From assembly GCA_010093705.1 (NCBI GenBank), contig MU006093.1:1075301-1139300 (forward strand): a stretch of DNA of 64,000 bases, read 5' to 3'. Shown here piece by piece: positions 49,754 through 64,000 of this stretch (the first letter of the stretch is position 1; each line of letters begins with the position of its first letter). The notes beneath the pieces were generated by a model. The model was not told the DNA's origin. It saw nothing but the letters and a program-made list of their open reading frames with translations, and did no database searches. Both the position numbers and the translations under genes were made by a program. This stretch comes from Patellaria atrata CBS 101060. Taxonomy: Eukaryota.

Positions 49754-50893
49754 TTACAAGTACTGCTCGAAGAATTCGGGGCGGAACCACCCGACCTTCT
49801 CATAAGCAGACCACAATTTACTTGCTTTGTTGACGTCGATCTTACACGCTTGCTGAGCATCGGTCTTACGGAACTCTTTACCAATCTTGAGTGCTTCAAT
49901 GCGTGCTTGAAAGATACGACGCTTGCTACAGAGGTATGTAGCGCAGGAAAGACGAAGGGTGGCAGCGAGCGTTACTTCGGCCTCGTGAAGTAGGTGTCTG
50001 TCGAGATCTGCAGAGAGATCGAGCATTTGGCCTTTCCAATCCGCCTTGAGGATCTTGTTGTTGCCTTTAGGCAGAGTAGACGTTGGCGGAGAGAAGTCGG
50101 GTAGAGCATTATAATCAACGTCATCCCTATTGGTAGGTGCTCTCGGCGTCTTCGGCGATGCGTGAACGTCAAACGAGTCGTAGACGAACGTCTGGGGAGT
50201 TCTCCGAGGAGGTCGAGGTTGGCGAGGGTTCCTTCCGATAAGTGGCGCTGTCTTGAACTTCTTGATTCCGGAAGGAGCAGGTGCGAGTGTCCGGAGATTG
50301 GATTTGGGGAACTTGTTCTTGGCCTTATTCATCCGAGATAGGTACTCAGCCATGATAGCACGTTCTCTCTTCATGTACTCTCGAGGGTTTTGGTTGTAGT
50401 TCTTGTACACCGTTGAGACGCATGAGACAGCCAGCTTGTACTCATCGCGCGTAGGCTCGTTGATGTGTGATTCTTTCGACGCAATGTGCTCAGAAACGAT
50501 GGAGTCAACGTCAACATCGCTTTGCGATTGGGGAAATAGAGGCAAGTCTTGAGAGACGGTCTCGTAGCGGTCGCTATCTGAAAATAGTTCCGGGTCCCTA
50601 ATTCTCTCCCCATCCACCGAGTGTATAGCATTGTTTTCCTTCTGCGCTGATGTGTACGGGGAGATGGGAGGTGAAGGTGGTAGTCCTTCTCTTTCGGAGG
50701 CCGCTCGTCGGTAGAGGGGTCCTAGATTGGTGGTCTTGTCGGTTGAGAAGGAAGAGAGAGGAGTGCGCATAGTTGGACCAGCCATTGGTGATTGGAAACT
50801 CTCGAGCTTCTTTGTCTCTGGAGGTGAAAGTAGTGAGGAAACGGCAAAGCGACTATCGTGCTTTATACTTGAACTTGTAGAGGAAGAAGCCAT
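49754..50893 (-). CDS. FUN19: SWIRM-domain protein, Fun19-like
   Basis: C-terminal LHEAEVTLAATLRLSCATYLCSKRRIF...FRKTDAQQACKIDVNKASKLWSAYEKVGW SWIRM domain; N-terminal SSLLSPP motif. Confidence 0.9.
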   Translation of the reverse strand: MASSSTSSSIKHDSRFAVSSLLSPPETKKLESFQSPMAGPTMRTPLSSFSTDKTTNLGPLYRRAASEREGLPPSPPISPYTSAQKENNAIHSVDGERIRDPELFSDSDRYETVSQDLPLFPQSQSDVDVDSIVSEHIASKESHINEPTRDEYKLAVSCVSTVYKNYNQNPREYMKRERAIMAEYLSRMNKAKNKFPKSNLRTLAPAPSGIKKFKTAPLIGRNPRQPRPPRRTPQTFVYDSFDVHASPKTPRAPTNRDDVDYNALPDFSPPTSTLPKGNNKILKADWKGQMLDLSADLDRHLLHEAEVTLAATLRLSCATYLCSKRRIFQARIEALKIGKEFRKTDAQQACKIDVNKASKLWSAYEKVGWFRPEFFEQYL

Positions 50894-62382: not shown

Positions 62383-63043
62383 TGTGGCACAGTAGTACAC
62401 TTCACTGGAGTTCTGGAACGGGTCAAGGTTAACCGCAACTTTAGCGGTCTGTTGAAGGGGTTGGTGTTACTTTCTCTGTCAAAAATTCTTCGTCCTTTTT
62501 GTACAGTTATGAGAAATCTGGTCACCATCCATAGGTTCGAAGATGTTCATTTCGCGGCAGGTATTCCGGCATGCTTAGTGTAGAGACGATTTCTCCGGGT
62601 GATGTTTGATTGTAAAGATAGGCACACGTAAGGCATAAGAGACAGATGTCGGTCAGTTCTGAGACATTTACATGCATCACGTGAAACATGCGATCCAGGA
62701 CAATGGAATTCCATGGTCATGCACTTTGATATGTCGTATCTTGTCCAGTTCAGCAGCTGCCTTATGTAGTCAACTATACTATACACGGAAACGACTGGCT
62801 TCGCTCTCCTTCATCCTGTTGAGGCCTATCTTTGCGCTGTATTGGGTTAGCGTCTTGGCGTTGCAGCGCTGGAGCGTGACATCTTACAGACAGGCACCGC
62901 CGCCTCAAACCTCCATAAAAACAACATCACAAATTTCGGCTGAGCTACATCAACGTCGCTCTCCATAAAACGCCTCTCGACGCATCCCTATCTTCGCGTC
63001 TTCTATTCACCCTTCCCCCGCTGCTTTCAACACTCGACGCAAC

Positions 63044-64000
63044 ATGAATCCAGAGTAGTACGTCGCCCTGTTTTAGAAAACCTCCGCTCACCTTCTGGGC
63101 GGTGTGTTGCATGTTCTGATGTGCTCACTACCTTGATAACGAAGCTGACCTGTATTCTTTAGAGTATAAACGAAGATTCAAACCTGTTGACCCCATCATG
63201 CGTTCTACCTTTTCCGTGGTTGATGATGCTGATATTATTCCGACGTAAAGATACGATTATCTCTTCAAGCTGCTCTTGATCGGAGATTCCGGTGTAGGAA
63301 AATCTTGTCTGCTCTTGAGGTTTGCAGATGATACCTATACCGAGAGCTACATTTCCACCATCGGAGTCGATTTCGTGCGTCGACCTTGTGAAATGCTTCC
63401 GACGGACTGGTACTGATGGAGATGATAGAAAATCCGTACAATCGAGCTGGACGGAAAGACTGTGAAACTCCAGATCGTATGTACCATGAAATCGAACAGC
63501 TGAGGAAGGCATAACTTATAGTGATTTTCCAGTGGGATACTGCCGGCCAGGAGCGCTTCCGCACAATCACCTCCTCGTACTACCGCGGAGCACACGGCAT
63601 TTGCGTTGTCTATGATGTGACGGACATGGACTCGTTCAACAACGTGAAGCAGTGGCTACAAGAGATTGACAGGTATGCCACAGAGGGTGTCAACAAACTC
63701 TTGGTGGGCAACAAGTCAGATATGGCCGACAAGAAGGTTGTGGAGTACACAGTAGCAAAGGTATTGTCATATTGAATGATCTTAGATTGTCATCGCTTGC
63801 ATGTTACTAACAGTGACAAGGAATTCGCGGACAGTCTTGGTATCCCCTTCCTCGAAACATCCGCCAAGAACGCATCCAATGTCGAGCAAGCTTTCTTAAC
63901 CATGGCCAGGCAAATCAAGGAGCGTATGGGCACTACCGCTGTTAATAACAAGCCCACCGTCCCCATCGGCCAAGGTCAAGGTGTACAATCCGGTTCGGCC
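63044..64000 (+). CDS. YPT1: Rab1/Ypt1 small GTPase (truncated by window end)
   Basis: [49 protein letters not shown] and ETSAK motifs; complex first intron (see findings). Confidence 0.97.
63055..63250 (+). other. Candidate [D3,4] spliceosomal twin intron (stwintron)
   Basis: GTA | GTACGT...GCTGAC...TTTAG (63058-63162) | AGT... Excising the inner intron yields a GTAAGT donor; outer branch GCTGAT at ~63228 and acceptor AAG at 63250. Confidence 0.75.

Follow-up and report, generated by a model that had tools for sequence, protein, structure and literature searches.

A candidate [D3,4] stwintron, with one intron lodged in the donor of another, in the YPT1/Rab1 gene of a Dothideomycetes-like fungus

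How a fungal gene removes an intron whose donor, as written in the genome, is a poor one is the question raised by the YPT1/Rab1 orthologue at the right end of the window (the whole stretch of 64,000 nucleotides analysed here), the fourth exon of which matches many ypt1 proteins of Pezizomycotina at 100% identity. The ATG of the gene lies at 63044-46 and its first exon comprises 11 nt, as read from positions 62700-64000 of the window. Between this exon and the next stands an intervening sequence of 196 nt (63055-63250) that reads GTA/GTACGT…GCTGAC…TAG/AGT…GCTGAT…AAG, the slashes marking the ends of a smaller intron contained within it. The genomic donor of the whole, at 63055-63060, is a poor GTAGTA, and becomes GTAAGT once 63058-63162 is excised. 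A preliminary description of this DNA had pointed to the nested arrangement, and each of its coordinates and motifs was borne out when the same positions were read again (Table 1).

In the reading that we favour, with a probability of roughly 0.72, positions 63055-63250 of this Dothideomycetes-like fungus would constitute a spliceosomal twin intron (stwintron) of the donor-disrupted class, type [D3,4], seated in its YPT1/Rab1 gene. The argument rests on the anatomy of the intervening sequence, on its conservation among relatives and on the weakness of the donor as it stands in the genome; the first two are observed here, and the removal of the intron in two ordered reactions, by way of a singly spliced intermediate, is inferred.

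Table 1. Features of the YPT1 locus in the window, with positions counted from the first letter of the window
Feature	Positions	Strand	Remarks
YPT1 exon 1	63044..63054	+	ATGAATCCAGA; Met-Asn-Pro and the first two bases of the Glu codon
Outer donor, nt 1-3 (GTA)	63055..63057	+	GTA in 5 of the 6 complete loci, GTG in L078
Inner intron, 105 nt	63058..63162	+	donor GTACGT 63058-63063, branch GCTGAC 63144-63149, acceptor TAG
Outer donor, nt 4-6 (AGT)	63163..63165	+	joined to 63055-63057 gives GTAAGT
Remainder of outer intron	63166..63250	+	branch GCTGAT 63228-63233, acceptor AAG
YPT1 exon 2	63251..63374	+	starts A TAC GAT TAT, ends GVDF; cDNA-like contigs align from 63251 to 63374
Intron 2, 54 nt	63375..63428	+	donor GTGCGT, acceptor TAG
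Exon 3	63429..63476	+	from aligned cDNA-like contigs and gene structure comparison
Intron 3, 56 nt	63477..63532	+	donor GTATGT
Exon 4	63533..63760	+	WDTAGQERF…EYTVAK
Intron 4, 60 nt	63761..63820	+	donor GTATTG (no G at +5), perfect TACTAAC branch, acceptor AAG
Exon 5	63821..64000	+	runs past the window end

The smaller intron has its own set of U2 splice signals, namely a canonical donor, a branch and an acceptor, the branch A lying 14 nt from its 3' end in the window, and it splits the 6-nt donor of the outer intron, which reaches consensus only after its removal. The outer intron that is then left, 91 nt long and opening with GTAAGT, has its own downstream branch, whose A lies 18 nt from the end, and its own acceptor, an AAG of the kind also found in intron 4. 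The start of exon 2 is supported by homology: alignments of the window with cDNA-like contigs of relatives, taken from metagenomes, begin exactly at 63251. The fold of 63055-63250 is ordinary (z = -0.77), so that no structure is seen that would enforce an order of reactions.

Given this anatomy, U1 and the spliceosome would first define the smallest intron, GTACGT(63058)…GCTGAC…TAG(63162), and excise it, which would join GTA (63055-57) to AGT (63163-65) and thereby create the consensus donor GTAAGT. A second standard U2 reaction could then use this donor together with the branch GCTGAT and the acceptor AAG(63250), and would join exon 1 (…CCAGA) to exon 2 (ATACGAT…) so as to encode Met-Asn-Pro-Glu-Tyr-Asp-Tyr. 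Intron definition is described in PMC7138796 as picking the smallest possible intron, and two-step excision by this route is reported, on RT-PCR evidence, for other [D] types in ascomycetes (PMC7138796, PMC5639578, PMC12403724).

The N-terminus that such splicing would yield can be compared with that of related genes. A scan of metagenomes with the near-full-length Dothideomycete YPT1 protein P0077 as query gave 542 relatives, the best 80 of which were analysed. Intronless, cDNA-like contigs beginning ATGAAYCCNGARTAYGAYTAY make up 59 of these 80 loci (GAA in 56, GAG in 3), and they fix the N-terminus in the very form that the split codon GA/A predicts. The same 11-nt exon 1, ATGAAYYCNGA, precedes the intervening sequence in the loci L019, L057, L024, L078 and L060, which together with the window form the six complete genomic loci available for comparison.

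Many database models of fungal YPT1 have other N-termini, produced by read-through of intron 1 or by unrelated upstream exons. They include P0055, P0079, P0084, P0086, P0069, P0100, P0242, P0249, P0250, P0300 and P0322, and they span Dothideo-, Sordario-, Leotio- and Eurotiomycetes, Saccharomycotina and Saitoella. The Curvularia cluster protein P0055, for instance, starts MNPEWYVTS, which is the read-through of GTG GTACGT. The use of other upstream exons in so many models might suggest that exon 1 lies elsewhere, the gene model being wrong and the nested signals a chance resemblance. However, these alternative N-termini differ from one another and mostly end in R before YDYLF, as is expected when an arbitrary exon ending in …AG is joined to the A of exon 2; with the 59 intronless contigs and the first exon common to all six genomic loci also against it, such an error appears most improbable. 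The wrong N-termini fit instead with a first exon of 11 nt, followed by an unusual donor, that gene predictors have overlooked.

It is the comparison of the intervening sequences themselves that carries most of the argument. Nesting of the form GTR/GTA(C or A)GT…branch…YAG/AGT…branch…AG is present in all six complete genomic YPT1 loci. Directly after GTR comes the inner donor, GTACGT in all but L060, which has GTAAGT. Each of the six has one inner branch motif 14-19 nt ahead of the YAG, AGT directly after that YAG, and a rebuilt outer donor of the form GTAAGT or GTGAGT; the outer branch motif stands 10-18 nt before the final AG, after which exon 2 opens with ATAC, again in 6/6. The length of the inner intron ranges from 74 to 105 nt in the loci of filamentous fungi and reaches 401 nt in L060. 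A seventh locus, L005, is truncated at its 5' end and starts …CCTTCAG/AGTACT, in agreement with the inner YAG/AGT, and the contig of L014 begins within the outer part and is uninformative on nesting. Among the genomic loci that have an intron at the position of intron 1, none has a plain canonical donor there. The independent genomic lineages are few, five complete and one partial (L005), as L057 is 96% identical to L019 and hence not independent of it.

When the five filamentous-fungus sequences are aligned, what stays invariant beyond exons 1 and 2 is essentially both donors, the inner AG with its AGT, the CTGA of the outer branch and the AG at the very end; apart from these and a handful of isolated columns that are likewise invariant, the interiors have diverged. 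The preliminary description had proposed aligning orthologues for conservation of GTA/GT…AG/AGT, and the inner signals prove to be kept in the six complete loci as well as in the truncated L005. Its structural claim, that an inner U2 intron sits between nucleotides 3 and 4 of the outer donor, is backed by this conservation across 6/6 loci with a diverged interior, and as a reading of sequence it is strongly supported. Signals that are kept while the remainder decays are what selection on the inner 3' splice site would predict. The layout is probably ancient and maintained by purifying selection, since the loss of any inner signal would block the correct maturation of an essential mRNA.

How often such an inner 3' site would arise by chance can be gauged by shuffling. 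For each locus the first 9 and last 3 nt of the intervening sequence were fixed and the interior was shuffled 5000 times with dinucleotides preserved. To count as competent, an inner 3' site needed an AG directly before AGT, a branch motif 8-30 nt upstream of that AG, and a minimum length of 45 nt for both units. Such a site appeared in 62/5000 shuffles of the window, 123/5000 of L019, 65/5000 of L057, 44/5000 of L024, 38/5000 of L078 and 338/5000 of L060, that is, in 0.8-6.8% across the six loci, rates which are not to be multiplied with one another because the loci are related by descent.

The strength of the donors forms a further line of evidence. Against what we take to be the sequence of the U1 5' end, and in the canonical register, the number of Watson-Crick pairs is 3 for the genomic outer donor, 5 for the inner donor, 6 for the outer donor once rebuilt and 4-5 for the other three donors of the gene. 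Donors without G at +5 number 3 among the 20 donors of introns 2-4 across 7 loci; they are GTATTG in intron 4 of the window, GTGAAC in intron 3 of L024 and GTAACT in intron 4 of L078. Donors of this kind are thus tolerated in the gene family, and a weak donor is not impossible. From here the main rival explanation takes its start, namely that the 196 nt are a single intron with a tandem donor of the GYNGYN type, removed in one splicing reaction, in which U1 would dock on GTACGT at 63058 but the cut would be made at the GU of 63055, 3 nt further upstream, and no use would be made of the AGT or of the inner branch and acceptor. Two GT dinucleotides 3 nt apart do conform to the GYNGYN motif as described in PMC1779574, and the choice of site at the human STAT3 tandem donor is, according to PMC11162779, independent of the exact position of U1 binding. 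Moreover, an intermediate-like junction (63057^63163) occurs in 0 of 86 loci, which are mostly intronless cDNA-like contigs. Yet a single reaction from a tandem donor leaves unexplained why the inner branch and YAG/AGT are kept in all six loci (and YAG/AGT in L005 too) amid diverged surroundings, and why a competent inner site should be present at all at the low rates of the shuffles. It would also have to act from an upstream donor with its three pairs to U1 and with G, T and A at +4 to +6, and fungal intron definition, as set out in PMC7138796, favours the smallest intron. Overall, we regard removal in a single reaction as unlikely.

The only two sequencing runs listed as covering the stretch, none of them of RNA, are genomic, with promoter and introns included, and may be the window's own source; each yields one long contig identical to the window and free of joints, so that they say nothing about splicing. 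The mature junction 63054^63251 is placed by homology, because no cDNA contig comes, at an identity of at least 90%, from the same species as any of the genomic loci.

Spliced to either acceptor, the GTACGT donor yields GAG TAA; the preliminary description had stated this and the sequence confirms it. The description had gone further and proposed that the intermediate, by virtue of this immediate stop, could serve as a regulatory switch or a switch for NMD. This part finds no support, since phase and donor together make a stop in the intermediate unavoidable, any GTRAGT donor in this phase reading GAG TAA across GA/GTA AGT, and nothing that we found points to a regulatory device. A related possibility is that both routes coexist, most transcripts being processed in two steps and a share in one, which could be productive, starting from 63055, or unproductive, running from 63058 to 63250. 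In the latter case the product would be …GAG TAA TAC…, a dead-end mRNA, and it is pure conjecture that the balance between the routes could tune YPT1 output. There are precedents: a complex intervening sequence of Lipomyces starkeyi is reported to be excised by one or by two consecutive reactions (PMC7138796), and one-step missplicing of [D1,2] stwintrons has been described (PMC12403724). Exon 2 starts with ATAC in 6/6 loci, so that the inner donor spliced to the outer acceptor would always lead to the stop. The misspliced junction 63057^63251 is, however, found in none of the 86 loci, and we hold such a mixture of routes to be improbable.

Returning to the candidate [D3,4] stwintron, its taxonomic spread can be sketched from the loci that bear it, with the proviso that all placements are rough, based as they are on a very conserved protein. 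Exons 4-5 of the window are 99% identical to Phyllosticta, and those of L078 are 100% identical to Pleosporales proteins (Curvularia, Paraphaeosphaeria); for L024 the identity is 100% to a cluster (formed at 90% identity) whose representative is Endocarpon, and for L005 it is 98% to Cercospora. By these placements the layout is found in several Dothideomycete lineages and probably also in a Eurotiomycete or lichen-type lineage. Apparently it extends outside Pezizomycotina as well. L060 is AT-rich, encodes MNSEYDY and is without other introns in the gene, and its nesting, at 517-997 of that contig, combines the long inner intron with an outer one of 57 nt, both with ACTAAC branches. It looks like a Dipodascales-type Saccharomycotina yeast, since, of its named relatives, Sugiyamaella (84%) and Yarrowia (80%) rank best.

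Judged by annotated proteins, the layout is not universal in Pezizomycotina, as some read-through N-termini do not fit GTR/GT: Pyricularia has MNPEYF or MNPEYS, and Cudoniella, Pseudomassariella and Aureobasidium have MNPEV (proteins P0079, P0075, P0084, P0116 and P0308). These N-termini imply a different sequence right after exon 1, and in such lineages there could be another type of intron, or a shifted intron, at that position. A wider proposal, which we offer as tentative and rather doubtful, is that the [D3,4] stwintron predates the split between Pezizomycotina and Saccharomycotina and has been held in place by its indispensable inner signals, and that an obligatory two-step route, together with its dead-end one-step by-product ending in MNPE-stop, serves to set YPT1 output.

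Several observations made along the way concern the gene and its neighbourhood more broadly. The Cercospora-like L005 is without intron 2, its exons 2 and 3 being fused, although introns 3 and 4 are retained, as is the outer part of intron 1; this is an instance of intron loss within YPT1. A second yeast contig (L072) from the metagenome of L060 has an intronless gene encoding MNNEYDY. Elsewhere in the window, a single-exon open reading frame at 49754-50893 on the minus strand encodes a FUN19-like protein of 379 aa with a SWIRM domain, and its best named relatives, Dothideomycetes and mostly Pleosporales, reach only 54-58% identity, so that the organism of the window is without a close named relative in that database.

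Scans of two further collections with the YPT1 protein widened the search. The scan of genome_contigs gave only four Asgard-archaeal Rab-like loci and one eukaryote-like contig of 271 nt. The former (L082-L085) lie on contigs of metagenome-assembled genomes assigned to Promethearchaeota/Promethearchaeati and carry genes for Rab-like small GTPases that share 34-40% identity with fungal YPT1. The latter (L081), of low coverage and filed in a Halalkalibacter assembly, holds an intronless N-terminal part of a eukaryotic Rab1/YPT1 beginning MSNEYDY…, and is probably contamination. The scan of viral_contigs with the same protein gave no match, and a 20-mer pattern match in that collection was set aside as chance, because no YPT1 exon accompanies it.

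Stwintrons are established in fungi, and the demonstrated types include [D1,2], [D2,3], [D5,6] and [A2,3] (PMC5639578, PMC7138796). Examples of the [D] class in the same two papers are [D1,2] in lipS, [D2,3] in bioDA, [D4,5] in a reticulon-like gene of Lipomyces lipofer and [D5,6] in rtnA, to which PMC7138796 adds [D6,7] and [D7,8] stwintrons sensu lato in Lipomyces, and almost all known stwintrons are [D1,2] by the account of PMC12403724 (2025). In the parts compared of PMC12403724, PMC5639578, PMC7138796, PMC9024468 and PMC8469720, [D3,4] is not among the demonstrated types; provisionally, then, we take the type to be not yet in print. Among the literature matches listed, none ties stwintrons to YPT1, Rab1, rabO, srgB or 'GTP-binding protein', and stwintron and GTPase occur together in a single general review.

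The likeness to the [D] stwintrons of Ascomycota is close. There, as in YPT1, a canonical U2 intron lies inside the 6-nt donor of an outer intron that reaches consensus only after its removal, and both introns are small, each with its own branch and acceptor; in bioDA and lipS, too, the layout is reported to be kept across wide taxa at one position in the gene (PMC5639578, PMC7138796). The YPT1 unit differs from the others in that the interruption falls between donor nucleotides 3 and 4, the host is an essential Rab GTPase, the layout also appears in the Saccharomycotina-like yeast locus L060, and it is described here from genomic sequence. The [D6,7] and [D7,8] units of Lipomyces share with it two close donors at the 5' end and, as described, an inner intron that leaves first, whereas their outer donor is intact and functional beforehand and that of YPT1 is split; because of this split the YPT1 case belongs with stwintrons in the strict sense. 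At the level of sequence, then, the unit has the defining features of a [D] stwintron sensu stricto.

Two other known arrangements resemble this intron in part. The GYNGYN (delta-3) tandem donors of animals and plants likewise have two GT dinucleotides 3 nt apart at the end of an exon, as in the GTAGTA at 63055-63060. With such donors both resulting mRNAs are in frame, the difference being a single codon, whereas in YPT1 the downstream GT joined to the final acceptor gives GAG TAA, and for this reason the intron was not classed among them; unlike them, moreover, it has a conserved inner 3' splice site. In recursive splicing, ratchet points of the form AG/GTAAGT, which act as zero-length exons in long animal introns, allow the upstream exon to be joined to an internal AG/GT. 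Stepwise removal of an intron and regeneration of a donor at the junction are common to both systems. However, the internal site of YPT1 reads TAG/AGT and thus is no ratchet point with the AG/GT signature, its regenerated donor spans the junction of the two flanks of the inner intron, and the introns concerned measure about 100 nt and not tens of kilobases.

Widespread misannotation of YPT1 N-termini is the likely practical effect of the arrangement. Gene predictors would fail on a first exon as short as 11 nt with a split donor after it, and once the pattern is recognised the models could be corrected. The finding is of interest for the study of fungal introns and for the correction of YPT1 gene models, and is not a new principle. 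If confirmed at the level of RNA, it would add donor position 3/4, which we did not find among the demonstrated stwintron types, in a host gene that is universally present, essential and single-copy and could hence be compared across the whole fungal kingdom. Such a locus would be a good model for the origin of nested introns, for example by duplication of the first three bases of a donor, and would help to explain how nested introns persist and how strictly fungal spliceosomes obey intron definition.
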